A stretch of 64,000 bases of DNA from Candidatus Moraniibacteriota bacterium (GTDB lineage Bacteria > Patescibacteriota > Minisyncoccia > Moranbacterales > GCA-2747515). Below are positions 7,361 to 23,838 of the stretch, piece by piece (the first letter of the stretch is position 1; each line of letters begins with the position of its first letter). The position numbers and the translations under genes are program-made. The stretch is taken from positions 155,131 to 219,130 of the forward strand of contig CP065011.1 in the NCBI GenBank assembly GCA_016699795.1. The letters run 5' to 3'. The notes below the pieces were generated by a model. The model made no database searches and had not been told where the DNA came from. It was given only the letters and a program-made list of their open reading frames with translations.

Positions 7361-8128
7361 TTAATAATCTATAGTAGTCCAAGTGACTCTGTCACCAATT
7401 TTAATATAGAATTCTTTGTACCCCTCAGAGTACCGGACGGTACCCAATTCAGGTAAAGAATGGATGGAACTGCCCGCATAAAGGACCCAGTCTTTGTCGT
7501 CTTGTGTCATCATTCTGTTTGAGAATTTTGCTTCAAACTTCTCTTCGCTATTGATGAATATTTTAAATCTCTGACCTTCTTTAAATCTTGGTGTTTCACC
7601 CATCATCTTGAGAAGGCCAAAATTATCAATATGGACAATTGTTCCTGTGCTGATATCAAGGCTGATTAATTGCTCAGCATCAAATGGTTTACCGAAGCTA
7701 TTTAATGGTTCTCCTGCAACTAATTTCGCAACATTTGGTGCATGTACATATTTACCACCGAAAGAGACAAAACCTGGGTCATGTACTTCATACAATGTTT
7801 TGTATCCAAAATCTTTTAATACCCAACTTAATGCACCCGTGTTAGCGCTAAAAAACTTAATTCCATTATTAAGTTCTCCATATATTCGCGCTGAGCGATG
7901 TTTTTGAGGGTTAATTACCACTGAAAAAACAGTGTCTTCGAAGTAGTAATCAGCCATAAGCCTTGTCAAAAAAGCAGCATTTATAAGTGAGAATTCTGCA
8001 ACACACACAAGTTCAACCTCGACATCTTTAACTCCAAGTTTAAAACATTCGTTTAAAACAATTCGACGCATTTCATTAAAAGCAACATCTTTGCAGTCGG
8101 TGATAATTACTACATTTTTCTTATTCAT
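7361..8128 (-). CDS. DUF62 / SAM hydroxide adenosyltransferase-fluorinase-chlorinase family protein (paralog 1)
   Basis: 255 aa; N-terminal VVIITDCKDVAF (the TDFG-like nucleotide-pocket region) and HIDNFGLLK (IDxFGN motif) characteristic of PF01887 (5'-deoxyadenosyl transferase family: FlA, SalL, SAM hydrolase). About 50% identical to the ORF at 22883..23653. Confidence 0.7.
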   Translation of the reverse strand: MNKKNVVIITDCKDVAFNEMRRIVLNECFKLGVKDVEVELVCVAEFSLINAAFLTRLMADYYFEDTVFSVVINPQKHRSARIYGELNNGIKFFSANTGALSWVLKDFGYKTLYEVHDPGFVSFGGKYVHAPNVAKLVAGEPLNSFGKPFDAEQLISLDISTGTIVHIDNFGLLKMMGETPRFKEGQRFKIFINSEEKFEAKFSNRMMTQDDKDWVLYAGSSIHSLPELGTVRYSEGYKEFYIKIGDRVTWTTIDY

Positions 8129-8139
8129 ATACAGTTATA

Positions 8140-8805
8140 TTAAAAATCTCGTGAAATAAAATCATATCTTATCTGCTTATTCCTGTCTCTGAAATATATA
8201 TCCATATTAATCACTCCGGATTCATCAGTAAGATAGAAATCAAGAATAATGTACTCCCCAAGTGCTGGAGCCATATAGGACGAAAACGTCTTAATTCCAA
8301 ATATATCATCAATAATATGCATCATTATCTCAAAGTGTGACACTGCCAATACTTGTCTGAAAGATTCACCCGCAGTAATTCTGCGCAAAACAAGATCTGA
8401 AATGAATTTATAAAAGCGTAGACGCCTATTTGCGTGAGTCTCGACAATGTGCGAGCTTTTATGATATAGCTCACGATTCTCGTAATGCTCCCTCGCCACA
8501 TCGTCAAGTGTAAGTCCAAGATCCTTTTCACGAGTCAAAAAGGTCTGTAGATCTGCATAGTCACTTGAGCGAATCTCTTGTACCTCAAAATACTCATCGC
8601 TAGGCAAACCGGCACCTTTAACGATAAATTCAAGCGTGCCTCGCGCCCGCGCCTTAGGGGAATGCAATAGGTCAACTCTTGATTTTGCGTCAATAATACC
8701 CTGTTCAACCAAATCTTCACCAAGATGAATTGCTCGCTCAACACCCTCGGGTGTCAAATCGTGTCCTATGTCTTTGTAATACGGTGCCTCGTGTCTTATG
8801 AGCAC
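8140..8805 (-). CDS. histidine phosphatase (phosphoglycerate mutase-like) family protein
   Basis: 221 aa; LIRHEAP (RHG-like) and HSPKARARGTLEF (SPxxRAxxT) motifs. Locally GC-richer codons (cgcccgcgcc etc.) than neighbours. Confidence 0.6.
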   Translation of the reverse strand: MLIRHEAPYYKDIGHDLTPEGVERAIHLGEDLVEQGIIDAKSRVDLLHSPKARARGTLEFIVKGAGLPSDEYFEVQEIRSSDYADLQTFLTREKDLGLTLDDVAREHYENRELYHKSSHIVETHANRRLRFYKFISDLVLRRITAGESFRQVLAVSHFEIMMHIIDDIFGIKTFSSYMAPALGEYIILDFYLTDESGVINMDIYFRDRNKQIRYDFISRDF

Positions 8806-10437: not shown

Positions 10438-11358
10438 TTATTCTTCATTTTTTTCTCCCGAAGGAAAATCTCCTCTTTTTTTACAAAGGCCATATCCAAT
10501 CATGCTGTAGCATAACTGAGCTGCGACATATTCAGTTCGGACATCATCTTCAAAAGGAGCTATCTCTACAATATCAGCCGATACAACTTCTTTTTTCAGA
10601 AATAAATGTTTTAAAAATTGAGAACAAAATTCCCATGTTAATCCCCCAGGAACGGGAGTTCCTGTGGCTGGCGCAACCGCCGGATCTAATCCATCAATAT
10701 CTAATGTGAGATACACTTTTTCTGTAGGGATAGCATTTACAATATCTTCAACGGAATAATTCATTCCTGTCCCCCACTCAAAAATCAAAGATTTAGATTC
10801 TCTTGCAAAAAGTATTTCGCTCTTTGCATACGTTCGGATCCCTATTTGCACGGTTGGAAAACCCAATTCCACACCCCTTCTCATAACACAAGCGTGTGAA
10901 AATCTCCCAGGATTTACCTCATTAAAAGAAGAATCATCATCATACATATCCAAATGTGCATCGATTTGAACCAAAGATATTTCATTACTTTCTTTGAAAA
11001 AATCAGCTAGCCCTTGGAAAACTCCTATAGAAATAGAATGTTCCCCTCCCAATGTAATGATAAACTTTCCAGAGGAGAAGTGATGAAGCCATCGCTCACG
11101 AACAGTCTGGATCATTTTTTCAGGAAGTTCCGAATGAATAGAAAGAAGAGAATCATCATGAAAAATCGAAAATTCTTTGGCTGTTTCCAGAAGAAGAAAA
11201 CGATCAAATAATTCCACTTTTTCTTCTAAGCAATGAACGATTTTCATGGGTCCTTTATCTTGTCCTTTTCGAAAAGAAGAAGAATAGTCATAAGGAACAC
11301 TTAAAACAACAGCATCACAAGATTTTTCATCAATGACATCCAAAATAGATTCTACCAT
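10438..11358 (-). CDS. speB: agmatinase/arginase-family ureohydrolase
   Basis: 306 aa; Mn-binding motifs GGEHSIS, DAHLDMYDD, LTLDIDGLDP, TPVPGGLT. Confidence 0.8.
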   Translation of the reverse strand: MVESILDVIDEKSCDAVVLSVPYDYSSSFRKGQDKGPMKIVHCLEEKVELFDRFLLLETAKEFSIFHDDSLLSIHSELPEKMIQTVRERWLHHFSSGKFIITLGGEHSISIGVFQGLADFFKESNEISLVQIDAHLDMYDDDSSFNEVNPGRFSHACVMRRGVELGFPTVQIGIRTYAKSEILFARESKSLIFEWGTGMNYSVEDIVNAIPTEKVYLTLDIDGLDPAVAPATGTPVPGGLTWEFCSQFLKHLFLKKEVVSADIVEIAPFEDDVRTEYVAAQLCYSMIGYGLCKKRGDFPSGEKNEE

Positions 11359-11368
11359 AAAAAATCAT

Positions 11369-12424
11369 TTACTCTTTGTCATTATTTATAAATATTTTTC
11401 CCAATTCTTTCTTCTCTCTTTTTTTCCAATCTCCCTGATGATACACATAACTTATCATAAGAGGAAGAACGGATGTTGCTTCAGCATACACCATTTGTGT
11501 ATTTTCAATGGTAACCTTCCCCCACGAATGAGCTTCTTTTAGCGTCGAGCTTGAACAAGCTCCATCTCGAACATCCGCAACTGTTATCTGCACTGCGTAT
11601 TTATGCATCGGGGTATTTTTTTTACCCAACATTTCAGCACACACAACAGTGTCTTGAGTGAAATTTTTGGGAACACCGCCTCCTATCATAAAAACACCTG
11701 TTTGTTTTGCCTGCATTTTTATCTCGGTAAGTTCTCTAAAATCAGCAACGGAATCGATTGAAATATGAATATTTGGCTTTTCAACTTGATTCATAACTAA
11801 GCCAAAACCAGCACTACTGTCGGAAAAAGCAGGGCAAAATATCGGCACATTATTTTCATAAGCAACCTGAACTAAAGAATCTTTTTTCTTGGCCTTCTTA
11901 GGATTTTCAGAGAGAAACTTTCCCATATGATAAATAAATTCTCTCGAAGAATAAGGTCGAGGCTCAAGAGAATCCGCTATTTCTTTGATAGCGTTGTCGC
12001 ACATTTGTAGTTCATTTTCATTTATATACGTATCATATATTCTATCGATATAAAGCGATCGTAATTTGCGGTCATCTGAATCTACTGATCCCTGATAATG
12101 CTTTGCGCCAAGAGCTTCGAAAAAATCCATATCTACTATCGTTGCTCCTGTTGCAACAACAACATCGATCATGTTTGTCTTTATCATGTCTACATAGATT
12201 TGCATACATCCAGCAGCACTTGTACTTCCTGCTATAGTAAGGATATTCACACATTTTTTTTCTTTTATCATGGCAGATAATATATCCGTAGCATGAGCAA
12301 CTTCTCTTGCCGAAAAAGACATTCCTCGCATGGAATCAATAATGTATTGTGAATCAAACTTCTTAATATCGATATGCTGAACAACGTTTGAAAGTAATTC
12401 TTTCTTTTCCTGTGATTTCTTCAT
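11369..12424 (-). CDS. deoxyhypusine synthase-like protein (bacterial DHS homologues are often homospermidine synthases)
   Basis: 351 aa; DHS family features IFCPAFSDSSAGFG, MIGGGVPKNF (cf. GGGxxKH), NAD-binding Gly-rich region TIAGSTSAAG. Confidence 0.75.
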   Translation of the reverse strand: MKKSQEKKELLSNVVQHIDIKKFDSQYIIDSMRGMSFSAREVAHATDILSAMIKEKKCVNILTIAGSTSAAGCMQIYVDMIKTNMIDVVVATGATIVDMDFFEALGAKHYQGSVDSDDRKLRSLYIDRIYDTYINENELQMCDNAIKEIADSLEPRPYSSREFIYHMGKFLSENPKKAKKKDSLVQVAYENNVPIFCPAFSDSSAGFGLVMNQVEKPNIHISIDSVADFRELTEIKMQAKQTGVFMIGGGVPKNFTQDTVVCAEMLGKKNTPMHKYAVQITVADVRDGACSSSTLKEAHSWGKVTIENTQMVYAEATSVLPLMISYVYHQGDWKKREKKELGKIFINNDKE

Positions 12425-12433
12425 ATTTTTGAT

Positions 12434-12871
12434 CTATAATAAATTTTGACTTGGGTATCGAGTTCCTCTTTTAACAAAATTAATTTCCGTTTCTTTCAAT
12501 TGAAATATTTCAGTAATGTGAGAGATGATCAGGTCTGTTTCCATATCATTTTTGCAAGTATAGACATCCGCACTCAAAAATCCTCTTCCAGGAAATGTGT
12601 GTATACTTATATGACTTTCTTCGATCAAAACATATCCACTCCAACCTCCAGGATCCTTTGTATCATTTCCCTTTGCAAAAAAAACTTTCGTCTCCGTAAG
12701 TTTGTGCATTTCACATTTAACCACCAGATCATCTAGACATTTACGAACAGATTCTTCATCGTTTAATTTCTCAAAATTCCCACCATAACCGTCAATCATA
12801 AGATGCTCTCCGAAGTTTATTGTTTCCATATATTTTTCTAAATTATTAATAATTAACTCATCTAGGTTCAT
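12434..12871 (-). CDS. speH: S-adenosylmethionine decarboxylase proenzyme (pyruvoyl-dependent SpeH/class 1b)
   Basis: Start reassigned to the ATG at 12871 (MNLDELIINN...); the tracked ORF begins at an upstream TTG. LIEESHISIHTFPGRG carries the ESH self-cleavage serine motif. Forms an operon with the DHS-like and speB genes (9-10 nt gaps). Confidence 0.75.
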   Translation of the reverse strand: MNLDELIINNLEKYMETINFGEHLMIDGYGGNFEKLNDEESVRKCLDDLVVKCEMHKLTETKVFFAKGNDTKDPGGWSGYVLIEESHISIHTFPGRGFLSADVYTCKNDMETDLIISHITEIFQLKETEINFVKRGTRYPSQNLL

Positions 12872-12968
12872 TCCTAGGAAAATGCCCCAATAGTTTTGTG
12901 ATTTGCAGTAACGTATCAACTAAGTTATACCTCTATTGTAACACTTTTCTATATAAAGACAAAGGTGA
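12855..12968. repeat. copy 1 of a ~110-bp direct repeat (promoter + leader + first 5 codons of speH)
   Basis: About 93% identical to 23727..23838: aactcatctaggttcattcctaggaaaatgccccaatagttttgtgatttgcagtaacgtatcaactaagttatacctctattgtaacacttttctatataaagacaaaggtgaa. Confidence 0.85.
12935..12962 (-). promoter_or_regulatory. sigma70-like promoter for the speH operon inside repeat copy 1
   Basis: Minus strand reads TTGTCT-16nt-TACAAT, about 65 nt upstream of the speH ATG. Confidence 0.5.
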
Positions 12969-13196: not shown

Positions 13197-13763
13197 ATGA
13201 TAAAGAATCTTGATAAATCCATTATAATAACAGGCGCCTCGGTTAGTGGAAAAACGACGTTATGTCGTCGTCTCATGGTACATTTTAAGCTTCAGCCACT
13301 ACCTGTACACATGACCCGAGAATTGCGAAACGGCGAAATTGAAAATGTTGATTTGGTTTTTATTGTAGAAGATGAATTTAAAGCGCGTTTTCTAAATGGA
13401 GAATATTTGCAAGAGTCCCTTGAATCGGCATATTTTAGCGGAGCCTATTACGGTTGCCCCAAAGAATGGATTAACCATACTAGAAATGAAGATTATTGTT
13501 GCTTTGTATGTCCAACAGTCAAAATGGCGAAAGAGTTAAAAAAAACACTTGGACAGAAAATTTTTTGGATACATCTGACTACTAATAAAAAAGTTAGATT
13601 AGAGAGGTTAATGAAAAGAAATCCCGATATGAAAAAAGAAGATTTTGATGCAAGAATTGAAAAAGGAGATGCGATTGTTGATACAACAGGACACGATTTA
13701 ATCATAGATACCAGTTATCTTAATGCTTGGGAAATTTTTTTCAACGCATTAGCGAGACTATAA
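13197..13763 (+). CDS. guanylate kinase-like P-loop nucleotide kinase
   Basis: 188 aa; Walker A GASVSGKTTL; MTRELRNGEIENVDLVFIVEDEFKARFLNGEYLQ parallels Gmk TTRxPRxGExxGxDYxFxxxxxFxxxxxxxxFLE, with both substrate-binding Arg kept. Confidence 0.55.
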   Translation: MIKNLDKSIIITGASVSGKTTLCRRLMVHFKLQPLPVHMTRELRNGEIENVDLVFIVEDEFKARFLNGEYLQESLESAYFSGAYYGCPKEWINHTRNEDYCCFVCPTVKMAKELKKTLGQKIFWIHLTTNKKVRLERLMKRNPDMKKEDFDARIEKGDAIVDTTGHDLIIDTSYLNAWEIFFNALARL

Positions 13764-13766
13764 TAT

Positions 13767-15515
13767 ATGTGTGGAATTGTAGCCATTGCTGGAAAAATTA
13801 TAAACAAGAATCACTATGACACTGAAGCTATGCTTCAGAAATTAAAGCATCGCGGACCGGACGGGCAAGGAGAAATAACATTTCCCCATTGCTGGCTTGG
13901 ACATCGACGACTCGCTATCGTTGATTTAAAATTTGGCAATCAACCTATGGTTGATGATAAATTAGCTATAACTTTTAATGGCGAAATATACAACCATCGC
14001 GAATTACGTAATCAATTAGAAAAAGTAGGATATCATTTTCAAACTCAATCTGACACAGAGACAATTTTGAAAGCATATCGAATGTGGGGAAAAGATTGCC
14101 CAAAGTATCTAGATGGAATGTTTGCTTTCGCAATTTGGGATGATCAGCAAAACGAATTATTTATTGCCCGGGACAGATTGGGGAAAAAACCCCATTATTA
14201 TTTTTTTGATGGAGACACAACGTTTCTTGCTTCCGAAATAAAATCATTAGTTGCTTCGGGTACTTTGGTTCCGGAAATAGACTATAAGGCTATCGACAAT
14301 TTTCTAAGGGTGATGTATATTCCGCCATGGAAATCAGTATATAAAAATGTTCATCAAATTCCACCCGCACATTGTGGAGTCTACAAGGATGGGAAACTTT
14401 CACTCGACAAGTACTGGACACTTCCTTCTCGGAAAATCGATATTTCATACGAAGACGCCAAGGTTGAAGTTCGTAGACTTCTTCATGCTGCAATAAAAAA
14501 AAGAATATCCTCTTCCGATGTAGAATTAGGCTCATTTCTCTCCGGCGGACTAGATTCATCATTGGTCACGCTTATTACAGCTGGCGAGCTTAATCACCCG
14601 CTTAAAGTATTTTCTGTCAGTTATGATAATCATGATGAGCTCCCTTTTGCCAAGCAAGTATGCGAAAAAATAGGTGGTGAACATTTTACAACACGCATCG
14701 ATGGGTGCATAACGCAAGAATTGGATAAAATAATCTCCTATTTCGATGAACCGCACGCTGATACATCCGATTTTCCACAACATCTTGTTTCACAACTCGC
14801 GGCACAAAAAGTAAAAGTTGTATTATCCGGAGACGGAGCTGACGAATTATTTTTGGGATATAAGTGGCATCTCAAACATAAAAAACCCAATCAAAACCAT
14901 GGTTCATCAGATATTTTCCGTAATCGCCTTCAATCAATATGCGCATTTCCCTCTTCTGACAGATCACTACTTTGGAAATACCCGGATGCATTAAATGACG
15001 ATATTATCATAAAAGATGCTTATAAAAAAAATTTCACCTCTATTGATAATGTTACAACATTTGATTTAACCTCTCACTTGCCAGGTCAAATTCTCACAAA
15101 AGTGGATCGTGCCAGCATGATGCATGGGCTTGAAGTTCGCTCACCCTTTCTGGATATAGCGTTAATAGAATTTGTTTTTAGTCTACCTTATGAATATAAA
15201 GTTCGTAACGGTGAACAAAAATATATTCTCAAAGATATTCTTACCGAATATATGCCCATCGATTTTGTTTATCGCCGCAAACAAGGGTTTGGAGCTCCAA
15301 TAGAACGATGGTTAAATAACCCCACAATGAAAGAGTATGTATATTCGAAACTAGGTTCTGATGCAAAAATAAGATCCATTTTTTCAGAAAAAATCCTTGA
15401 TAACTATCTGCATGATTTCTATATTAATGAACATAAGCACGAGCGTTCCGCACAGCGACTTTGGGTACTTCTATCCTTAGAACGCTGGATGACACAATTA
15501 AGTTTAACCTTATGA
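13767..15515 (+). CDS. asnB: asparagine synthase (glutamine-hydrolysing) family amidotransferase
   Basis: 582 aa; N-terminal nucleophile MCGIVAIAG, HRGPD, class-II GATase domain; PP-loop SGGLDSS in the synthetase domain. Only 3 nt after the kinase stop. Confidence 0.85.
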   Translation: MCGIVAIAGKIINKNHYDTEAMLQKLKHRGPDGQGEITFPHCWLGHRRLAIVDLKFGNQPMVDDKLAITFNGEIYNHRELRNQLEKVGYHFQTQSDTETILKAYRMWGKDCPKYLDGMFAFAIWDDQQNELFIARDRLGKKPHYYFFDGDTTFLASEIKSLVASGTLVPEIDYKAIDNFLRVMYIPPWKSVYKNVHQIPPAHCGVYKDGKLSLDKYWTLPSRKIDISYEDAKVEVRRLLHAAIKKRISSSDVELGSFLSGGLDSSLVTLITAGELNHPLKVFSVSYDNHDELPFAKQVCEKIGGEHFTTRIDGCITQELDKIISYFDEPHADTSDFPQHLVSQLAAQKVKVVLSGDGADELFLGYKWHLKHKKPNQNHGSSDIFRNRLQSICAFPSSDRSLLWKYPDALNDDIIIKDAYKKNFTSIDNVTTFDLTSHLPGQILTKVDRASMMHGLEVRSPFLDIALIEFVFSLPYEYKVRNGEQKYILKDILTEYMPIDFVYRRKQGFGAPIERWLNNPTMKEYVYSKLGSDAKIRSIFSEKILDNYLHDFYINEHKHERSAQRLWVLLSLERWMTQLSLTL

Positions 15516-17203
15516 ACAATAATAAAAAATCTTCGGCTTTGCTTGATAGTCTCCATACTGACTTTAAAAAAATATATACAACTATGTCAGAAAAAAACTG
15601 GCATGAGCAAATTACTTTTTATCTAAATAAAATAGGATTTTTTTCTGGTAGCCCTGCTAAAGAAAGAATGGTTACCGGCTGGATTGCCGGGCTTTGTGAG
15701 CGTGCATACTATGTTGCGGCGCATAGAAAACCAATAAATATTCGTTCAAACTTTAGCCGTCAACTCAAAAAAATAATAAGCTCCACATCCTTACCTGAGT
15801 TTCTTAGTTGTCCCGGACAAGTCATTTGCGGTAAACGTCAACCCTCATTCATCGAAGGCATTATTCCGACACTTGAACGTCTTCAAGTCATGGAACGCTT
15901 ACCAGAAGTGTTTGGTGCCGGTATAGATTCTATTATTATCGGCGGATCAATGAGTTATATCCCCTTCTTCGGCATACGCGAAAATAAAAAAACTAAGGAT
16001 TTTTCCGATATTGATACGCTTATCGTTATTAATAATAAGTTCTTTAAAAAGGCTTCCTGGAAAAAATTTATAAATGACAAGCTATTTCCCGTTAAAGAGA
16101 AAGAAAAATTTCTTGATCGAATAAAGGTTTTCCAAAAACTCAACCGCAACAATATTGCTGACGTATTCAGCCAAAAATTTTCTATTGTTGGGAAGTCTTT
16201 TATCGTAAGCAATCACTTTGTTACTCGTTCAGTATTCGAAAAAATGGTTTATACTGACTTAAAAAAATCTCTTCAAACAAGAAAGGATATGCAGTACATT
16301 ATGCGCGATTTTCGAATAGATCCCTTTAGGCACCCTTGCCATGCGCGTCATACTTTTGACGGCCAACGTTTTGAATCAGTAATTGCTGGACAGGAATTAG
16401 AATCAGGCGGATTTATTTCTAATATGCCAGGCTATATTATTTCTAATGAAAAGCTTTATCCTGGTGTCTATCAAACTGTAATTTCTCCCGCATTTTTAGT
16501 GTTTTATGATCGCATAGGAGAAACGACAAAATTGGTTAAAGAATTTGAAAATATTATTTACAGAGAGGTTAAATATATACGAAAAAAAACACCGTCAGCA
16601 ACATATGCTAAAGCACATAACCGTTATGATATTTTCCCTCTCGGCAGATATGATGACGGGCATAATTCTTACATTTCACCAAAGGAAATTAAAAAATATA
16701 TACCACCCCCCAACTTTAATATTATTGGAATCAAATCGGTTATCTCACCAGAAGAAGTTATAGCCGATAAAATTAAAGATTCAAAAGAAAATCAGCTCGT
16801 TCGTTATAAAGCAAGACGCTTTCTAGAAAACTGGAAAAGGAAAATGTTAAGAAATGCCGAAATGGAAATTGATAAATTCATTAATCAAGAGAGCCTTAAA
16901 TCACTAATGCTATCATCTAAAGAGCAAGGAAAACAATGGGCTACAGTAGCTGCCATCCCCTACGGCAAACAGATAATCGAAAAAATTCCGCATCCATATA
17001 AAAAATCAGATTCAAAAAACTTAATTGTGCGCGAAGAATTATTTACCCAAATCATAACGCCTGGTGATATTATGCGTTTAACTACATATGAAAAATTAGC
17101 ACAAATATCTGGAAAAGTTTATGTAGCAAGTATTATGGATTCAAAAGAAAAACGCAAAAATTTACCACTAAGCTATGAAGTAGTGATACCGATACCAACA
17201 TAA
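15512..17203 (+). CDS. large nucleotidyltransferase-domain protein (GlnE/GlnD/Pol-beta-like NTase signature), function unknown
   Basis: Start reassigned to the ATG at 15512, which overlaps the asnB stop (ATGA). IIIGGSMSYIPFFGIRE...KDFSDIDTLIVINN matches the hG[GS]...[DE]h[DE]h NTase motif (cf. GlnD vGGYGRgEL..SDIDLLI). About 560 aa; the rest is unassigned. Confidence 0.5.
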   Translation: MNNNKKSSALLDSLHTDFKKIYTTMSEKNWHEQITFYLNKIGFFSGSPAKERMVTGWIAGLCERAYYVAAHRKPINIRSNFSRQLKKIISSTSLPEFLSCPGQVICGKRQPSFIEGIIPTLERLQVMERLPEVFGAGIDSIIIGGSMSYIPFFGIRENKKTKDFSDIDTLIVINNKFFKKASWKKFINDKLFPVKEKEKFLDRIKVFQKLNRNNIADVFSQKFSIVGKSFIVSNHFVTRSVFEKMVYTDLKKSLQTRKDMQYIMRDFRIDPFRHPCHARHTFDGQRFESVIAGQELESGGFISNMPGYIISNEKLYPGVYQTVISPAFLVFYDRIGETTKLVKEFENIIYREVKYIRKKTPSATYAKAHNRYDIFPLGRYDDGHNSYISPKEIKKYIPPPNFNIIGIKSVISPEEVIADKIKDSKENQLVRYKARRFLENWKRKMLRNAEMEIDKFINQESLKSLMLSSKEQGKQWATVAAIPYGKQIIEKIPHPYKKSDSKNLIVREELFTQIITPGDIMRLTTYEKLAQISGKVYVASIMDSKEKRKNLPLSYEVVIPIPT

Positions 17204-17207
17204 CATC

Positions 17208-20114
17208 CTACCGCTTAAGCGTTATTATAATTTTCTTGTCTTCAATTGAGAATTCTTTTTTGATATCATTTTCTGAAAGCAAGTTTGATTGGATATTATT
17301 TGCCAAAACTTCTTTTTGAATCATTTCTCCAAACTTATTGAAAATTTCTTCCATTCCATCATATCCGACTCGAATACGATTATCAACTTCATATCCCGCT
17401 TCTTTGCGCATTTCTTGAATAACTCTAATTATCTCGCGAGCATTGCCTTCCATTTTCAACTCCTCAGTAATTTCAATATTTAGTTCAACCTTATTTTCTG
17501 GTCCACTTTTAATAACAACATTTTTGACATTAACCTCTTCTTTCATAATTTCTATAAAATCTTCCTGCATTTCATAGTTCGTAATTATCAATTCGGAAAG
17601 TGGTTGTCGGACCTTGATTCCATTTTTTGCACGCAATTGCAAAGCCTCCGTAATGATTTTTCTGGTATTATCCATTTTTTCATTTAACTCCGCGTCAATC
17701 AATTTTTCATCAGCCACAGGGAAGTCAACCAAATGTACAGATTCTTCATTTGCTAAGTTCTTATAAATTTCTTCTGCAATAAATGGAGTAAATGGTGACA
17801 TAACCTTTGATAATTCCACCAAAACATAGTGCAATGTTTGGTAAGCAGCTTCTTTATCACCATCATCCTCAGATTTCCAAAATCTCTTTCGGCTGCGGCG
17901 AATATACCAGTTAGATAATTCATCAATAAAATCCATGACTGGTTTCGTAGCATTTGGCAAATCATAAGCCAACATGTTTTCGTCAGCTGTTTTAATAAGT
18001 TTATGCAACTTTGATACAATCCATTTATCCAGCAAGCTTATTGTTTGAGGTCTCTCGCCTAAATTTTGAGGAGACCATTTATCTACATTGGCGTACATGA
18101 CGAAAAAACCATAACTGTTCCACAAGGTGCCCAATTTTCTTTGAATATCAGAAACATCCTTATCAATTAAGGCAAAATCGTCACCATTGAGCAGTGGTGA
18201 ACTTATCAAGAGGTATCTCAAGGCATCGGCACTATATTTCTCAAGCAAAACATTCGGATCCGTATAATTACCTAAAGATTTTGACATCTTTTTACCATCC
18301 GAACCCGCAATCGTACCAGTTACAATGACATTTTTAAAAGATTCCTTTCCAAAAAGACCCACTGATACGGCATGTAGGTAATAGAACCACGCACGAACTT
18401 GACCAACATATTCAGAAATAAAATCTCCCGGAAAATTTTCTTCAAACTTCTCCCTATTCTCAAACGGATAATGAAATTGAGCAAATGGCATTGACCCCGA
18501 TTCAAACCAGCAGTCCATAACTTTTTCAATTCTTCTCATCCCAATACCATCTATTTCAAAAGTTATTTTGTCGACATAAGGCAAATGGTAATCTCCAAGT
18601 TCTACGCCCGAAAGTTCCTTTAATTCTGCATAACTACCCACGACTTTTGTTACTACTGTTCCGTCAGATTGTGTTCCGCGCCAAACCGGAATAGGCGTAG
18701 CCCAAAATCGATCACGACTTAAGTTCCAATCGGGAGCAGTTTCCACAGTATTCCTAAACCGCTTTTCCTTAAAATGATCCGGGAACCAGTTGATATTCTC
18801 ATTTTCTTCCAACATCTCTTTTCTTTGCCCGTCAATATCCATAAACCAGCTTGGATGAGCTCGGTACATCAACTTCGTACCACACCTATGGCAATGTGGG
18901 TATTCATGCTGGACATAGTCAATTTTTAATACAACATCATCCACCAAAAAAGTTTTGGCTATTTCTTTATTTACTTCCCAAACATTTTTATCCTTCCATC
19001 TTCCATCGACATAGATTCCGTTTTCATCAACCGTATTTACGACTGGCAGTTTCTCTTTTTTAGCAACCACATAGTCATCTTCTCCGAAAGCCGGAGCGAT
19101 ATGCACAATACCTGTTCCATCTTCTGTTGTCACAAAATCCGCACCAATGATTCTGTGCGCTTTATCCCCATGATTTTTAAAAAGAGGCTTATACTTTTTA
19201 TTGACTAATTCCGCACCACTAATTTCTCCGACTATCTTCGGTGGAGTAGGCGGAACATCCAAGGAATTCAATTCTTTAACGGCAACAAATAAAACTTCCT
19301 TCTTATTTTCATAAGTTTCTTTTGCTAAAATAAAAATTTCTTCCTCCCCTTTTTTGTTATTATATCTAACTTTTACATAGTCAATTTTTTCACCTATTGC
19401 TAAGGCTACATTGGCCGATAATGTCCAAGGTGTCGTTGTCCAGGCTAATAAATATGTATTTTCTTCGCCTTCAAGTTGAAATTTCACATAAACCGATGGA
19501 TCAGTTACCACCTTATAGCTATTATCCATAGCTACTTCAGCTTTTGAAATCGGAGTCGCACACCGCGTGCAATACATTAGAACCTTTTCACCTTCATATA
19601 TTTTTCCTTTTTCATACAATTGCTTAAATGCCCACCAAACACTTTCCATGTATTCTTTATCCATGGTCTTGTATGCATTTTTAAATTCTACCCAGCGGCC
19701 GATTCTCTCAATTGTATCTTCCCAAACACTACCACCTTGAACCATTTCTCTATGACAAGTTTGAATATATTTTTCTAATCCAATTTTTGGAATGTCACGT
19801 TTATCTTTAATGCCTAGTTTTTTTTCTACCAAATTTTCCGCAGGTAGACCATGACAATCCCAACCCCAACGCCTTTCTACTCGCTTACCTTTCATAGTCC
19901 AGTACCGTGGCACTACATCTTTCACGATCGAAGAAAGTAATGTCCCATAATGAGGAATTCCTGTTATGAAAGGAGGTCCGTCATAGAAAACATACGCATC
20001 TTTTTTATCTCTCATCTCCACAGACTTTTTAAAAGTATCATTTTCCTTCCAAAACTTAATCATCTCCTGTTCCATTTCTGAATATTTTTTTCTTAATTCT
20101 ACCTTTTTAAACAT
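17208..20114 (-). CDS. ileS: isoleucyl-tRNA synthetase, eukaryote-like type 2
   Basis: 968 aa; YDGPPFITGIPHYGTLL (type-2 HYGH-class HIGH region); GWDCHGLP; KMSKS (KKMSKSLGN); CP1 editing domain present. Confidence 0.9.
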   Translation of the reverse strand: MFKKVELRKKYSEMEQEMIKFWKENDTFKKSVEMRDKKDAYVFYDGPPFITGIPHYGTLLSSIVKDVVPRYWTMKGKRVERRWGWDCHGLPAENLVEKKLGIKDKRDIPKIGLEKYIQTCHREMVQGGSVWEDTIERIGRWVEFKNAYKTMDKEYMESVWWAFKQLYEKGKIYEGEKVLMYCTRCATPISKAEVAMDNSYKVVTDPSVYVKFQLEGEENTYLLAWTTTPWTLSANVALAIGEKIDYVKVRYNNKKGEEEIFILAKETYENKKEVLFVAVKELNSLDVPPTPPKIVGEISGAELVNKKYKPLFKNHGDKAHRIIGADFVTTEDGTGIVHIAPAFGEDDYVVAKKEKLPVVNTVDENGIYVDGRWKDKNVWEVNKEIAKTFLVDDVVLKIDYVQHEYPHCHRCGTKLMYRAHPSWFMDIDGQRKEMLEENENINWFPDHFKEKRFRNTVETAPDWNLSRDRFWATPIPVWRGTQSDGTVVTKVVGSYAELKELSGVELGDYHLPYVDKITFEIDGIGMRRIEKVMDCWFESGSMPFAQFHYPFENREKFEENFPGDFISEYVGQVRAWFYYLHAVSVGLFGKESFKNVIVTGTIAGSDGKKMSKSLGNYTDPNVLLEKYSADALRYLLISSPLLNGDDFALIDKDVSDIQRKLGTLWNSYGFFVMYANVDKWSPQNLGERPQTISLLDKWIVSKLHKLIKTADENMLAYDLPNATKPVMDFIDELSNWYIRRSRKRFWKSEDDGDKEAAYQTLHYVLVELSKVMSPFTPFIAEEIYKNLANEESVHLVDFPVADEKLIDAELNEKMDNTRKIITEALQLRAKNGIKVRQPLSELIITNYEMQEDFIEIMKEEVNVKNVVIKSGPENKVELNIEITEELKMEGNAREIIRVIQEMRKEAGYEVDNRIRVGYDGMEEIFNKFGEMIQKEVLANNIQSNLLSENDIKKEFSIEDKKIIITLKR

Positions 20115-20379
20115 AAAATTATCATTTTATAATATTTAACTAACATAAAAATAAAAATCCCTACACAAATAATGTATAAGGACGATTGAAAATCGTGGTA
20201 CCACCTTAATTCCCCCAATATTTATATGGAGCTTGATTATGGCTATTACGGGCCACCCGGTGGATTCTACTTGCCTAATAGGCTTTCTTTTCACAGCATT
20301 GGGATTGATAGTCCCTCAAGCGCTTTATATATATAATACTTCTTTTTAAATATTAGGCAAATTACCAATCTTCTTAACT

Positions 20380-20815
20380 ATTTTATCAAGACTCTCAAAT
20401 AATGATTTCCTTTGACGGATCTACCGTTAAATCTGGATGTTTTGGAATTTCGTAATGCATATCCTTACCAATTTTTTCACTTCGTATATAAATCCAAAAG
20501 AGATTAATCAGTTTTGTAATCATATCCCGTATTGATTAAAAAGGTGCTATAACAGGAACGACCCTATTAAAACCTTGGCTATTAAGAACTTTTGTCAATC
20601 GCGCAACTCGCATATTGTGTTCCTTTCTATCTTCATTGCTAAATCCTAGATCTATTTAAATTGATACACGCGATTCATCTCCATCAAGAACTACAGCACT
20701 TAGTCGATCCTTTAGCAAATATGCGAGCAAGGTCTTACCTGAATTAACATTCCCAGTTTACTATATAATTCTTTTTTTGCTGTCTCATATCTTGGTTACT
20801 GAGATTTCTTCAATT
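20380..20815 (-). pseudogene. cysC: adenylylsulfate (APS) kinase pseudogene
   Basis: Minus-strand frame: AGGAGG-6nt-ATG MEKQIEEISVTKI*DSKKRII**TGNVNSGKTLLAYLLKDRLSAVVLDGDESRVSI*IDLGFSNEDRKEHNMRVARLTKVLN, then a frameshift and ..SQGFNRVVPVIAPF*. This matches CysC (..TGLSGSGKSTLA..[34 protein letters not shown]..FISP) but carries in-frame TGA, TAG and TAA codons plus at least one frameshift. Confidence 0.6.
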
Positions 20816-21137
20816 TGCTTTTCCATTCTAATCCTCCTGATTCCCCAGCCAGCATCACGACTATAAAAAACTTCTTTATATCAGGAATAGCTACTAAACA
20901 TTTTCATCACCCTCATACTCCTTTCTAATCCTCGCCATTCATTCTTCAACCAGATAAAGATAGATAAAATCTTAGAGTATCTCTAGCAGCGATGACGACG
21001 CTGCCACATTCATTTAGAACAACATTAATGGGAGCATTATGACCTCTGTGAAACGGTTGCTAACGACCTATACATAATGATTTACTCATGCATTTATGAA
21101 TACGCTGAATTCATCCTTAATTAATTTAACGGTTTTA

Positions 21138-21905
21138 TCAGTACTTTAAAATCTGATTTATCTTATTCGCTTTAGTTTTTGAGTTTATTTCATCCAAGAA
21201 AAGAGTAAATGATTCTCTTCGTGGAAGTAACCCTATCTCTCCCCTTTCTATTCCACGAGAATGACCAGGCAAATCAATATCACCTGTCACATTTTTAAAA
21301 TCAGCGTAATTCAGGAAAAGATCGCTATAATTGATTCCAATGTGACCACAAATTTTTTTCATTTCTTGAATGGGATTATTACAGAAATTTTCATACTTAA
21401 ATATCATCACTTCCTTTCCTACTAAGCTTGTTGTTAGCTCATATAAAAAATCAAGATTTTTATCATAAAATGTTCTTGGAGAAGCATTAAGAGAAAGCCA
21501 AACATCAATAGCGTTTCTAACAAAAGCAATCGGTATAACCGGAAAAAATTTGAATAGCGCATCAAGCGTAGCCAATGATTTAGATGGTTTAAAATTATTA
21601 TATCGGGATGGTACGAAACTTCCGAATGTCCAATCGCGAACTACTAGAGTTAAATTTTTAGAAATACAATATTCATATATTTCAGTTATGTTTTCAATAA
21701 ATCCTTCCGACTTCAATTCCAAACCGTACCATTCTTTAGATTGCTCTTTAATCGTGCTACAAGAACTAGGGCACAAAGCTTCAATACTTACCTCAGATAA
21801 AACAAAAGTATTGGGAATACTAGCAATGCATCTATTAAGCAAAGTCCCTCCGGACCGTGCATAAGCCATCATCACCACAATCGGTTTAGAATATTTATTT
21901 ATCAT
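21138..21905 (-). CDS. PAPS-dependent sulfotransferase family protein
   Basis: 255 aa; 5'-PSB-like motif ARSGGTLL near the N-terminus and 3'-PB-like RNAIDVWLS (RxxxDxxxS). Confidence 0.6.
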   Translation of the reverse strand: MINKYSKPIVVMMAYARSGGTLLNRCIASIPNTFVLSEVSIEALCPSSCSTIKEQSKEWYGLELKSEGFIENITEIYEYCISKNLTLVVRDWTFGSFVPSRYNNFKPSKSLATLDALFKFFPVIPIAFVRNAIDVWLSLNASPRTFYDKNLDFLYELTTSLVGKEVMIFKYENFCNNPIQEMKKICGHIGINYSDLFLNYADFKNVTGDIDLPGHSRGIERGEIGLLPRRESFTLFLDEINSKTKANKINQILKY

Positions 21906-21916
21906 CGTTTCTTTCG

Positions 21917-22876
21917 TTAGTTTTTAACTAAAGCTTCATCATATTTCTTTGATATAATTTCAACTTGTTTCTTCAAGTCTGTTATCGTTCCCTTCGCGGG
22001 AGATAATGAATAGGATGGCGTGAAAATATAATTATTATTATTGCCACCAACCCAGTATCTTCCATCCAGTAATATTTGTTCAGAAGTATTTGTCAAATTA
22101 TTTTTAAAAGTTTCGTCTACGGGAGCAATCCTAAAAAAGAAATCTTTATCCAAATCATAAATAATCCCATATCTATTTTTTATTTTTGTCTCATCATAAG
22201 CAATTTTATTTAATTTAATCCAATCGGCTAATATTTTTTTGATTAATTCAACACTAACATGAGGAGAATCATCAAGCCTCAATTCTTCTATTAGCTTTAA
22301 ATTTATCTTATTTTTATAGCAAAAATCAAATAAGCTAGGTAATGACGATATATTTATTTCAGTTACCGGAGTATTGAACTCTATTCTGCCCCCCCTTGAT
22401 TTGATGAATAATGCTGAATCCAAAGTATTTTTTAGACCATCTTTATCAAATCTCGCTCTTGTCGTTTTTTCATATATGTCCTTATCTAAAGATGGCAAAT
22501 GTATATGAACATCAGATAATCCATTTTTCAATAAATCATCAGCTAACTCAAGAGTCATTCTGGAACCATTAGTAGTCATCCCAACATCTTTCACATACTG
22601 ATTCAATATGCTAAATATTTCCACCAGGTCTTTTCTTAACGTTGGTTCACCACCCGTTATCTGGATGTGAAGATTTTTCTCATTAATAATATTTTTTAGT
22701 TCACTAACAAATTCCCGGACTTGCTCTAATGGAATAAATCCATATCCTCGCGTATACTTTCCATCTACGAATGGTCCGCAATATATACAATTTTGATTAC
22801 ATGCTCCCGTTACCGATAATCTTATTTCATAAAATGGCATAGAAACATGAAAATCTTTTGTATTCTCTAATAGCAT
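21917..22876 (-). CDS. radical SAM protein, MoaA/viperin-like class, lacking the MoaA C-terminal auxiliary-cluster cysteines
   Basis: 319 aa; IRLSVTGACNQNCIYCGP (CxxxCxxC); ITGGEPTLRKDL; MTTNGS. MoaA-like TIM-barrel region present; no C-terminal CxxC...C motif. Confidence 0.8.
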   Translation of the reverse strand: MLLENTKDFHVSMPFYEIRLSVTGACNQNCIYCGPFVDGKYTRGYGFIPLEQVREFVSELKNIINEKNLHIQITGGEPTLRKDLVEIFSILNQYVKDVGMTTNGSRMTLELADDLLKNGLSDVHIHLPSLDKDIYEKTTRARFDKDGLKNTLDSALFIKSRGGRIEFNTPVTEINISSLPSLFDFCYKNKINLKLIEELRLDDSPHVSVELIKKILADWIKLNKIAYDETKIKNRYGIIYDLDKDFFFRIAPVDETFKNNLTNTSEQILLDGRYWVGGNNNNYIFTPSYSLSPAKGTITDLKKQVEIISKKYDEALVKN

Positions 22877-22882
22877 AAATAT

Positions 22883-23653
22883 TTATATTTTTTCCCAAGT
22901 TATTACATCTCCGACTCGAATGTTAAGTTCTCTTGCACTATCCGTGCATCTGACTTTTCCTAGTTCAGGTAACCCCATGGAACTTCCGGGATAAAGTACC
23001 CAAGTTCCGGTATCATGATCCATCATTCGCGCTGAAGTTATGACCTCAATAGATTCATTTCCATTTACAAATATCCTCACTTTTGTTCCTTCTGGATAAT
23101 CAGGGAATTGATCTTTTATTTTCATTAACCCAAAATTATCAATATGAACGACGACACCTTTTTTAACAGAAAAGTCGCACAATTCGTCTTTACTTAGTTC
23201 CTTTCCATATTCTTCAAATGAAATCCTTGATGCTATTTTGGCAACCATTGGAGAATGAACATACTTGCCTCCGAACGGATAAAATTTACTTTCTTTTATT
23301 TCATATAGAGATTTTATACCAAAATCATCAAATAACCAATTCAATGTTCCAGTATCCGCACCTTCAAAATATATACCATTCGCAAGTTCGCCAAAAATTC
23401 TTTTTGGTCTCTGTTGGGATGGGTTAAGAATTAACATAAAAATAACGTCCTCCTTATAATGTTCTGCCATCAGTCGTGTAAGAAATGCTCCATTCGTTAT
23501 GGAAAATTCCTCGGCGGGAATAAGAGGCTCAATCTCTGTATAGCTATTGCCCAACTTTTCACACTCAGATAATATTTGTCTTCTAATTTCACAAAATGCA
23601 ACATCTTTGCAATCTGTAATGACTACAACATGTTTAACTGGTTTTTTCTTGTT
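22883..23653 (-). CDS. DUF62 / SAM hydroxide adenosyltransferase-fluorinase-chlorinase family protein (paralog 2)
   Basis: Likely start is the GTG at 23653 (VNKKKPVKHVVVITDCKDVAF aligns with the paralog-1 N-terminus MNKKNVVIITDCKDVAF); the tracked ORF starts 54 nt upstream. HIDNFGLMK motif present. 6-nt gap to the radical SAM gene. Confidence 0.7.
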   Translation of the reverse strand, partial: NKKKPVKHVVVITDCKDVAFCEIRRQILSECEKLGNSYTEIEPLIPAEEFSITNGAFLTRLMAEHYKEDVIFMLILNPSQQRPKRIFGELANGIYFEGADTGTLNWLFDDFGIKSLYEIKESKFYPFGGKYVHSPMVAKIASRISFEEYGKELSKDELCDFSVKKGVVVHIDNFGLMKIKDQFPDYPEGTKVRIFVNGNESIEVITSARMMDHDTGTWVLYPGSSMGLPELGKVRCTDSARELNIRVGDVITWEKI

Positions 23654-23726
23654 CACACTTAATGTTAAAATTAGGTAATTAAAGCACGCTAAGAATATTA
23701 GTATCACGCAATCTGGCTATTATATA

Positions 23727-23838
23727 ACTCATCTAGGGTTATTCCTAGGAAAATGCCCCAATAGTTTTGTGATTTACAGTAACGTATTAACTAAGTTATA
23801 CCTCTATTGTAATACTTTTCTATAAAAGACAAAAGTGA
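23727..23838. repeat. copy 2 of the ~110-bp direct repeat, immediately upstream of the DUF62-2 operon
   Basis: aactcatctagggttattcctaggaaaatgccccaatagttttgtgatttacagtaacgtattaactaagttatacctctattgtaatacttttctataaaagacaaaagtgaa. The speH ATG is degenerate here (ATA); promoter-like TTGTCT-15nt-TACAAT retained on the minus strand. Confidence 0.85.

Follow-up and report, generated by a model that had tools for sequence, protein, structure and literature searches.

A guanylate-kinase-like kinase, an AsnB-type amidotransferase and a predicted nucleotidyltransferase form the core of a sulfotransferase-containing gene cluster in Patescibacteria

Introduction

Why do bacteria of the Candidate Phyla Radiation (CPR, or Patescibacteria), which have tiny genomes and almost no biosynthesis, carry a nucleotide-kinase-like gene, an amidotransferase gene and a gene of no known family packed into one unit? 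The question is raised by a 64,000-nt stretch of DNA from a Candidatus Moraniibacteriota bacterium (GenBank assembly GCA_016699795.1, contig CP065011.1, positions 155,131-219,130; hereafter the window), in which genes for a guanylate-kinase-like (Gmk-like) kinase, an AsnB-type amidotransferase and a protein that we call X563 follow one another on the plus strand. An earlier note, made from the sequence alone, had called this trio an uncharacterised nucleotide-centred module, which our follow-up analysis found to be a fair description. Here, we report that the trio is the invariant core of a 7-10 gene cluster limited to CPR/Patescibacteria. We give roughly even odds (a probability of about 0.5) to the reading that this cluster is a small-molecule nucleoside or nucleotide tailoring pathway with sulfation, in which X563 would be the nucleotidyl-transfer enzyme.

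The gene trio and the conserved cluster

The genes of the trio are as follows.

13197-13763, plus strand: Gmk-like kinase, 188 aa, opening the trio in all loci
13767-15515, plus strand: AsnB, 582 aa, starting MCGIV, with Cys2 and the SGGLDSS PP-loop
15512-17203, plus strand: X563 (gene 3), 563 aa, predicted nucleotidyltransferase (NTase) of the Pol-beta superfamily

Direct reading of the sequence showed a 3-nt gap (TAT) between the kinase and AsnB genes, and the ATG of X563 at 15512 overlaps the TGA of AsnB in a 4-nt ATGA. Together with the listing of open reading frames (ORFs), these junctions confirmed the packing described in the earlier note, and all of the motifs that it had named (GASVSGKTT, MTRELRNGE, Cys2, SGGLDSS and GGSMSYIPFFGIRE...KDFSDIDTLIV) were found in the translations. 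The orientation opposite to the neighbors was also borne out, as the ORF listing places minus-strand genes on both sides of the trio. The GC skew changes sign across 13-14 kb of the window. A longer, TTG-started ORF from 15461 was considered for gene 3 and ruled out; since the N-termini of 48 out of 48 aligned homologs begin at the position of the 15512 ATG, this codon and not the upstream TTG was taken as the start. The resulting protein is identical to NCBI protein IPN70_00840, encoded on a contig of 1,186,598 bp.

Related loci were gathered by looking up encoding contigs and by scanning GTDB species genomes and metagenomes, and were mapped by tblastn. The order Gmk-like kinase, AsnB, X563 was identical, with identical orientation, in 20 loci, whose hosts were Moraniibacteriota, Falkowbacteria, Parcubacteria, Paceibacteria and other Patescibacteria metagenome-assembled genomes (MAGs). 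The gap between the kinase and AsnB genes was measurable in 18 loci and ranged from 3 to 8 nt throughout. At the AsnB-X563 junction, 11 loci had an overlap of 4 nt, four had one of 1 nt and three had one of 11 nt. The earlier note had proposed co-conservation in other genomes as a check, and the collinear, coupled arrangement in these 20 loci confirms the trio as a real, translationally coupled gene set.

The trio is only part of the cluster. A DUF62/SAM_HAT-family gene and a sulfotransferase gene were present in every cluster locus with enough flanking sequence. Type A clusters carry a MoaA-like radical S-adenosylmethionine (SAM) gene. In type B clusters its slot is taken by an enolase-like gene, and a PurD-like ATP-grasp gene is also present; the radical-SAM and enolase-like genes never occur together. 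NUDIX genes repeatedly adjoin the cluster, and locus L006 contains a TauE-type exporter. Among the cluster loci we found no conserved glycosyltransferase, flippase or membrane protein and no conserved export pump, and an Rfam scan found no RNA element in or near the cluster. No description of this gene combination was found in the literature searched. The cluster was previously undescribed: the enzyme superfamilies are known, but their assembly is new.

In the window, the other half of the cluster occupies 17208-23707 on the opposite strand and was not recognized in the earlier note. Its features are as follows.

17208-20114, minus strand: isoleucyl-tRNA synthetase (IleRS) of type 2 with a DUF5915 C-terminus, TIGR00392 852 bits, the last gene of the minus-strand half
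20349-21089, minus strand: pseudogene of a CTP_transf_like-APS-kinase fusion (APS, adenosine 5'-phosphosulfate), with at least six in-frame stops and at least two frameshifts in the six-frame translation
21138-21905, minus strand: sulfotransferase, 255 aa, PF13469 E 1e-5
21917-22876, minus strand: MoaA-like radical-SAM enzyme, 319 aa, PF04055, with the motif CNQNCIYC
22883-23707, minus strand: DUF62/SAM-adenosyltransferase-family protein, PF01887 E 8e-8

A degraded variant of the cluster (L049, 6172-6770, and L050) was also observed. It had been considered as a stand-alone gene for the C-terminal domain of X563, which was rejected: two short remnant ORFs are left from the 3' end of X563, the kinase and AsnB genes are gone, and the DUF62-like, enolase-like, IleRS, fusion and sulfotransferase genes are kept.

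X563 and its family

Searches of Pfam, NCBIfam, PADLOC and PDB sequences with X563, both as a single sequence and as a profile, gave zero matches, and relaxed Pfam scans returned noise and a sub-threshold PF01909 only (best E 0.04). A collection of 5.8 billion proteins contained 54 homologs, none with a Pfam domain and all source-named ones 'hypothetical'; no homolog was found in phage and plasmid collections. The earlier note had given gene 3 about 560 aa and no recognisable domain beyond an NTase motif. The length is 563 aa, and the domain claim stands by sequence but not by predicted structure. AlphaFold2 models of the full length and of the core (pLDDT 92, pTM 0.90) predicted three parts: residues 1-91 form an N-terminal bundle of helices, residues ∼104-387 the NTase core, which includes a beta-rich subdomain, and residues ∼400-563 an alpha/beta C-terminal module that is specific to the cluster.

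The alpha-beta-alpha-beta core of the Pol-beta superfamily is present in the model around the GS...DID residues, where the earlier note had suggested looking for it. The hG[GS] motif (G144-G145-S146), invariant in 49 close homologs, lies at the end of strand 138-144, and the metal-binding carboxylates (D166-I-D168), 99% conserved, at the start of strand 167-173. GGS and SDxD (S165-D166-x-D168) were conserved in 93-99% of 170 family members. The family alignment further showed conservation of R123, R156, R203, S220, S233, H235, D266 and R371; D266, on strand 260-268 and 91% conserved, is the sole candidate for a third catalytic carboxylate. The best structural neighbor of the model was Tam41, a lipid-phosphate cytidylyltransferase. 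Because the models are confident and the superfamily signature is correctly placed and conserved, X563 is probably an active NTase. As modeled, it is probably the founding full-length member of a new NTase family and not specifically GlnE/GlnD-like. A family without a database model has thus been placed in the Pol-beta NTase superfamily by structure prediction.

An exhaustive profile search of 1.84 billion cluster representatives found 310 that belong to the family, most of which are 350-460 aa long and span only residues ∼105-385 of X563; about two-thirds of the family lack the C-terminal module. Short members (330-460 aa) occur without an amidotransferase neighbor. Short-form genes form two-gene units, in 8 out of 16 loci with a ∼260-aa gene of the AP_endonuc_2/xylose-isomerase-like TIM-barrel type directly downstream and in 5 out of 16 with a convergent RNase T-type exonuclease (L004, L014, L016, L018, L020, L042, L043 and L046; L012, L013, L015, L017 and L019). 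Ham1 lies upstream of the short-form gene in two loci, and one short-form locus carries an archaeon MAG label. Three distant members (P0176, P0189 and P0196; 680-712 aa) are fused at the C-terminus to a class I SAM methyltransferase.

These data bear on the idea that AsnB is regulated by adenylylation or uridylylation, with X563 as the GlnE/GlnD-type enzyme, as the earlier note had considered. The fold is common to X563 and GlnE/GlnD, and the ATGA overlap that couples AsnB to X563 translationally is a conserved feature, which would suit such a role. However, the GlnE/GlnD domains (PF03710, PF08335; HD, ACT) and PII features are absent from X563, its closest structural similarity is not to GlnE/GlnD, and the roughly two-thirds of the family without the C-terminal module have no amidotransferase nearby. 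The GlnE/GlnD-like label applies to the superfamily fold only. Regulatory nucleotidylation of the amidotransferase found no support, as shorter family members occur without one, beside a TIM barrel or an RNase T-type exonuclease; we regard it as extremely improbable.

Kinase and amidotransferase

Gene 1 matched PF00625 (Guanylate_kin; E 1e-11), and guanylate kinases were its best solved relatives in PDB (E 5e-11), with the Staphylococcus aureus Gmk alignment spanning residues 9-157. The P-loop GASVSGKTT and the GMP-binding segment MTRELRNGE (pattern TTRxxRxGE) are present. The score against the Gmk equivalog TIGR03263 was 67.9 bits, below the cut-off of 160.45, in agreement with the earlier description of the protein as Gmk-like but divergent. 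On these sequence comparisons, gene 1 appears to encode a Gmk-like P-loop nucleoside monophosphate (NMP) kinase that is not demonstrably a true Gmk.

Gene 2 contains PF13537 (GATase_7) and PF00733 (Asn_synthase) and exceeded the cut-off of TIGR01536 (467.8 versus 267.1 bits). With Cys2 and SGGLDSS in place, it can be classified as a complete AsnB-type glutamine-dependent amidotransferase, as had been claimed. The best solved relative was a tailoring hydroxyamidotransferase (7ylz, E 1e-55), and the human and Escherichia coli asparagine synthetases ranked behind it. The score against TIGR03108, the model of an EPS-associated amidotransferase, was 466 bits, which is under the cut-off of that model.

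Partner enzymes and sulfate activation

The best PDB match of the sulfotransferase profile was the activating CurM sulfotransferase (4gbm), a weak match at E 0.02. Two motifs, YARSGGT and VRxxxDxWLS, were invariant in nine orthologs, and we take them to be the 5'-phosphosulfate-binding loop and the 3'-phosphate-binding motif, respectively. For NucK, of nucleocidin sulfamylation, the CurM sulfotransferase has likewise been reported as a neighbor (PMC10946740).

The sulfate donor of such an enzyme, 3'-phosphoadenosine 5'-phosphosulfate (PAPS), is provided for in two ways. Four loci (L006, L008, L031 and L032) carry CysD plus CysN/C, and four (L023, L024, L027 and L049) carry the ∼250-aa CTP_transf_like-APS-kinase fusion. 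As these are two unrelated solutions to PAPS supply, sulfation can be argued to be integral to the pathway. The fusion combines a minimal cytidylyltransferase-like HxGH domain (GRWQPFHxGH ... ISATKIR) with an APS kinase and, as it stands where other cluster variants have CysD plus CysN/C, may be a minimal PAPS synthase; intact orthologs lie at L024 7412-8161, L023 7573-8325 and L049 5017-5820. When the intact 249-aa ortholog of L024 was compared with the pseudogene of the window by tblastn, it aligned in four pieces, in different frames and with stops. The pseudogene accounts for the ORF-free kilobase between the IleRS and sulfotransferase genes, and the other seven cluster genes are intact. 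With this dedicated PAPS supply lost, the pathway may be in decay in this genome.

The DUF62-like gene most likely starts at the GTG at 23656 (MNKKKPVKHVVVITDC, 257 aa), judging from the sequence and from the N-terminus of a paralog. Its closest solved relative is the (R)-SAM hydrolase MJ1651, relative to which DP is changed to NP and FHGRD to FGGKY, so that Asn and Gly stand in for the Asp and His of the catalytic triad. Assignment of the triad positions relied on known motifs and is moderately secure. A His-Arg-Asp triad that activates water marks the DUF62 hydrolases, whereas fluorinase and chlorinase lack it (PMC10491745). The cluster protein thus shares the family PF01887 and the lack of an intact hydrolytic triad with these halogenases and differs, by the two substitutions, from the DUF62 SAM hydroxide adenosyltransferases. 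Since the triad is incomplete, the enzyme may use a new nucleophile. The paralog lies outside the cluster at 7361-8128 on the minus strand, adjoining a His_Phos_1 phosphatase gene (8140-8805); it is 63% identical to the type B cluster version (L003) and 49% to the cluster copy of the window, and carries the same Asp-to-Asn and His-to-Gly changes.

The radical-SAM enzyme scored ∼103 bits with MoaA models, far under their cut-offs, and 47 bits with viperin models. In comparison with MoaA (1tv7), R17 is kept, the triphosphate-binding residues K69 and R71 are changed to H and Q, and K163 is replaced; a role as a MoaA-like NTP binder was therefore not upheld. There is no Cys after residue 186, so that the C-terminal auxiliary 4Fe-4S cysteines are missing. 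The protein also matched the PADLOC pVip models (57 and 51 bits), which raises an antiviral explanation: a viperin-like radical-SAM enzyme and a nucleotide kinase would make chain-terminating nucleotides that are further tailored. The pairing of a kinase with viperin is known, also from PADLOC family names, and the NUDIX proteins could detoxify NTP analogs. On the other side, MoaA models outscored viperin models, no other cluster component matched a PADLOC model, the radical-SAM gene is dispensable and gives way to the enolase-like gene in type B loci, and the search of phage and plasmid collections found no X563 homolog. We therefore consider a defense function improbable.

The enzymes described so far could also serve envelope tailoring, with X563 activating a phospho-alcohol or lipid (Tam41- or LicC-like), AsnB amidating a uronic acid or a peptidoglycan carboxylate, and the sulfotransferase sulfating a surface glycan or lipid. 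AsnB homologs do amidate cell-wall components, and the structural likeness to Tam41, the TIGR03108 score of AsnB (though under the cut-off) and the TauE-type exporter of L006 point in the same direction. However, this explanation is hard to reconcile with a cluster devoid of a conserved glycosyltransferase, flippase or membrane protein, or with X563, for which no membrane segment was predicted; moreover, the DUF62-like, MoaA-like and NMP-kinase-like enzymes and NUDIX indicate nucleoside chemistry. It appears quite unlikely.

Linkage to aminoacyl-tRNA synthetase genes

The IleRS gene of the window is transcribed toward X563, and 4 nt separate the two stop codons. IleRS lies inside or adjoining the cluster in 11 loci, in at least six arrangements. 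It precedes the kinase by a spacer of only 2 nt (L001 and L030), lies downstream of the PAPS genes (L006, L008 and L032), has the enolase-like gene on one side and the kinase or fusion gene on the other (L029 and L049) or is inverted after X563 (the window, L023, L024 and L027). Two cluster loci without IleRS have a valyl-tRNA synthetase (ValRS) gene 1-3 kb away. In related Moranbacteria loci where IleRS is 73-80% identical but has neither cluster nor trio beside it, the gene keeps another conserved context (IleRS-RecO-DUF7619-TGT), which is absent from the window. The linkage to aminoacyl-tRNA synthetase (aaRS) genes is solid; immunity, use of Ile-AMP or Ile-tRNA, co-regulation and IleRS as a recombination anchor are candidate reasons.

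With regard to immunity, none of the best 120 IleRS homologs was a second copy from the 1.19-Mb contig, although a very divergent copy would escape this search, and no alignment column separated eight cluster-linked IleRS from 69 other Moranbacteria-type IleRS. The 'HIGH' motif PHYGTLL (HYGT) was rejected as a resistance signature, as it is clade-wide in linked and unlinked enzymes: H-x-G-T replaces the canonical class I signature H-x-G-H in all IleRS of this Patescibacteria clade (the window and 119 homologs, P0200-P0318). HYGH is kept in the IleRS of L006, L008, L029 and L049.

Two domain insertions were observed in these synthetases. In some Moranbacteria-type IleRS (P0235 and P0261; 1116-1140 aa), an inserted NUDIX domain separates the catalytic domain from the anticodon-binding one. 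This fusion was rejected as a link to the cluster NUDIX, as the one examined (L052, 6631-9981) sits in a cluster-free locus, in the context ArgRS ... IleRS-NUDIX-RecO. A 1127-aa ValRS (L007, 11857-15240, minus strand), 3 kb from a cluster variant, contains inserted His_Phos_1 (ribazole-phosphatase-like) and ASCH domains.

The recurrent IleRS/ValRS linkage would also fit an RNA-directed explanation, in which tRNA(Ile), tRNA(Val) or another RNA is the substrate of X563 as a terminal or tRNA nucleotidyltransferase, and the product is a novel modification relevant to recognition by IleRS or ValRS. An essential aaRS within the operon suits such a housekeeping, translation-linked role, and the RNase T-type exonuclease, Ham1 and AP_endonuc_2-family genes that adjoin the short X563-family genes are consistent with it. 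Nevertheless, no tRNA gene was found near 18 cluster loci, and no RNA-binding domain was detectable by sequence. AsnB and an NMP-kinase-like protein are typical small-molecule enzymes, and we know of no PAPS-dependent sulfation of RNA. An RNA substrate thus seems unlikely.

Exchange of the cluster between hosts

A 110-nt direct repeat is present at both edges of the cluster in the window.

12847-12956, minus strand: left repeat, containing the promoter (TTGTCT-16-TGTTACAAT), leader, ribosome-binding site and first codons (MNLDEL) of an S-adenosylmethionine decarboxylase (AdoMetDC) operon
23718-23827, minus strand: right repeat, a copy of the promoter-leader with the ATG destroyed

The right copy lies just upstream of the DUF62-like gene and just past the terminator of the preceding gene. 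The copies are 92-95% identical with a spacing of 10871, which bears out the repeat-bracketed 10.8-kb segment of the earlier note; no further copies were found in the window or in related loci. Nucleotide homology to the closest relatives, L023 and L024, extends from 13180/13196 to 23635/23673. Because this homology lies exactly between the repeats and ends there, and the flanks are unrelated, the 10.8-kb block, including IleRS, is a discrete module whose insertion involved a duplicated promoter. Neither an integrase nor a transposase was seen near the unit. The operon that abuts the cluster directly (10438-12919, minus strand) is of polyamine type, with AdoMetDC, deoxyhypusine-synthase-like and agmatinase/arginase-family genes; it shares the duplicated promoter with the cluster, and this adjacency was not seen in related cluster loci.

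Between hosts with an IleRS identity of only 41-52%, cluster proteins shared 65-78% identity, and they were no more alike between hosts whose IleRS are 84-87% identical. As the cluster-protein identities are out of step with those of IleRS, the cluster has been exchanged horizontally, and it is nevertheless found joined to the resident IleRS gene. These observations are relevant to whether the trio is a housekeeping operon of convenience, with gene 1 as the guanylate kinase of the cell, gene 2 as its asparagine synthetase and the rest unrelated. Both families include housekeeping members, CPR genomes are compact, and in many bacteria ileS shares an operon with unrelated genes. However, the kinase scores below the Gmk equivalog cut-off, order and overlaps are strictly conserved over 20 loci, related Moranbacteria carry IleRS without the trio, and the unit has been exchanged as a block irrespective of IleRS divergence. 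Mere convenience is thus very improbable.

Proposed pathway and significance

The small-molecule tailoring pathway favored here would act on a purine nucleoside or nucleotide scaffold, and the most likely product is a sulfated, amidated nucleoside-type small molecule. AsnB would activate a substrate carboxylate as an acyl-AMP and use glutamine-derived ammonia to turn it into a carboxamide. X563 would transfer an NTP-derived nucleotidyl group to a small-molecule acceptor (a hydroxyl, a phosphate or the new amide), and the kinase would convert an NMP-type intermediate to the diphosphate, feeding or following this step. The sulfotransferase would add sulfate from PAPS as a decoration or an activating group. 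The DUF62-like protein might pass the adenosyl group of SAM on to some non-water nucleophile, and the MoaA-like enzyme, or the enolase-like protein that replaces it, might remodel the ribose by radical or elimination chemistry.

A more specific possibility, which we regard as doubtful, is that the product is an aminoacyl-adenylate mimic, that is, an acyl-amide joined to a nucleoside via phosphate or sulfate, acting on IleRS or ValRS. Agrocin 84, processed microcin C and acyl-sulfamoyl-adenosines serve as models for such a compound. Among specific products, this one is favored because aaRS genes in nucleotide-antibiotic clusters are a known theme (PMC8323819), and a mimic aimed at IleRS/ValRS would explain the recurrent aaRS linkage. 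In its fullest form, which is rather doubtful, the proposal is a horizontally exchanged CPR pathway to an IleRS/ValRS-directed acyl-phosphoramidate or acyl-sulfamoyl adenosine by chemistry not seen before. AsnB would make the acyl-amide, and X563 and/or the PAPS sulfotransferase would link it to phosphate or sulfate. The triad-less DUF62 enzyme would transfer the adenosyl group of SAM to a non-halide, amide-derived nucleophile, and the need for producer and target to be inherited together would explain why the cluster retains the synthetase gene.

Several points weigh against the tailoring pathway and its aaRS-directed version. All catalytic assignments of cluster components are made by analogy with their families, and the likeness to known sulfamoyl-adenosine clusters is limited to the sulfotransferase/PAPS theme. 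The RNase T-type exonuclease and the endonuclease IV/xylose-isomerase-like barrel beside short X563-family genes could imply nucleic-acid substrates. With its PAPS-synthase pseudogene, the pathway may be non-functional in the window. For the aaRS inhibitor in particular, a second IleRS of the genome was not among the best 120 homologs, the cluster-linked IleRS show no diagnostic substitutions, and the location of an apparently only, essential IleRS within the operon suggests constitutive expression.

A conserved, laterally exchanged pathway with its own PAPS supply in such tiny genomes must matter for the episymbiotic lifestyle. Should the product prove to be a nucleoside directed at an aaRS, CPR bacteria would have yielded one of their rare natural products, and sulfo- or phosphoramidate-nucleoside antibiotics would become accessible by a new route. 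Even if the mimic reading is false, the repeated recruitment of IleRS/ValRS into the cluster is a directly testable genetic linkage.

Comparison with known systems

With Tam41 (CDP-diacylglycerol synthase), ANT(4')/kanamycin NTase and LinB, X563 shares the core fold and the GS...DxD signature at strand 1-helix/strand 2. It is 9-14% identical to them and has no sequence-level Pfam NTase match, and they lack its N-terminal helical bundle, beta-rich subdomain and C-terminal module. GlnE and GlnD share the superfamily fold, but the duplicated NTase, HD and ACT domains are missing from X563, and there is no PII or glutamine-synthetase context. As a whole, the trio resembles NAD biosynthesis, where NadD, NadE and NadK carry out nucleotidyl transfer, ATP- and glutamine-dependent carboxylate amidation and phosphorylation on one nucleotide scaffold. 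This is an analogy only, as the protein families are unrelated in each case.

With regard to sulfation, the nearest parallels are the nucleocidin/ascamycin clusters for 5'-O-sulfamoyl-adenosines in Streptomyces, which are adenosine-centered and contain PAPS genes, CurM-like sulfotransferases and a radical-SAM gene, and whose products are AMP mimics that hit aaRSs (PMC10946740; PMC7613620). A PAPS-dependent sulfotransferase and a radical-SAM gene are common to these and the Patescibacteria cluster. In contrast, the nucleocidin/ascamycin clusters belong to another phylum, have their own sulfatases with maturase, an amidinotransferase and methyltransferases, and are devoid of AsnB, the Gmk-like kinase, an X563-type NTase and the DUF62 protein.

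Synthetase genes also occur inside clusters for nucleotide-derived inhibitors, namely the LeuRS gene agnB2 of agrocin 84, the SerRS gene abmK of albomycin and a MetRS gene in actinobacterial agn-like clusters (PMC8323819). AgnA of agrocin 84 was considered as an AsnB homolog, which was dropped since the review describes an aaRS-like adenylation domain (PMC8323819). The agrocin 84 parallel is therefore used at the level of logic only. In the agrocin 84, albomycin and agn-like systems the embedded aaRS is a second, resistant copy, whereas for the Patescibacteria cluster no second IleRS was found among the homologs compared, no resistance-type substitutions were seen and there is no conserved export pump. 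What these systems and the Patescibacteria cluster have in common is an aaRS gene embedded in the cluster, and amide-to-nucleotide chemistry is plausible in both.

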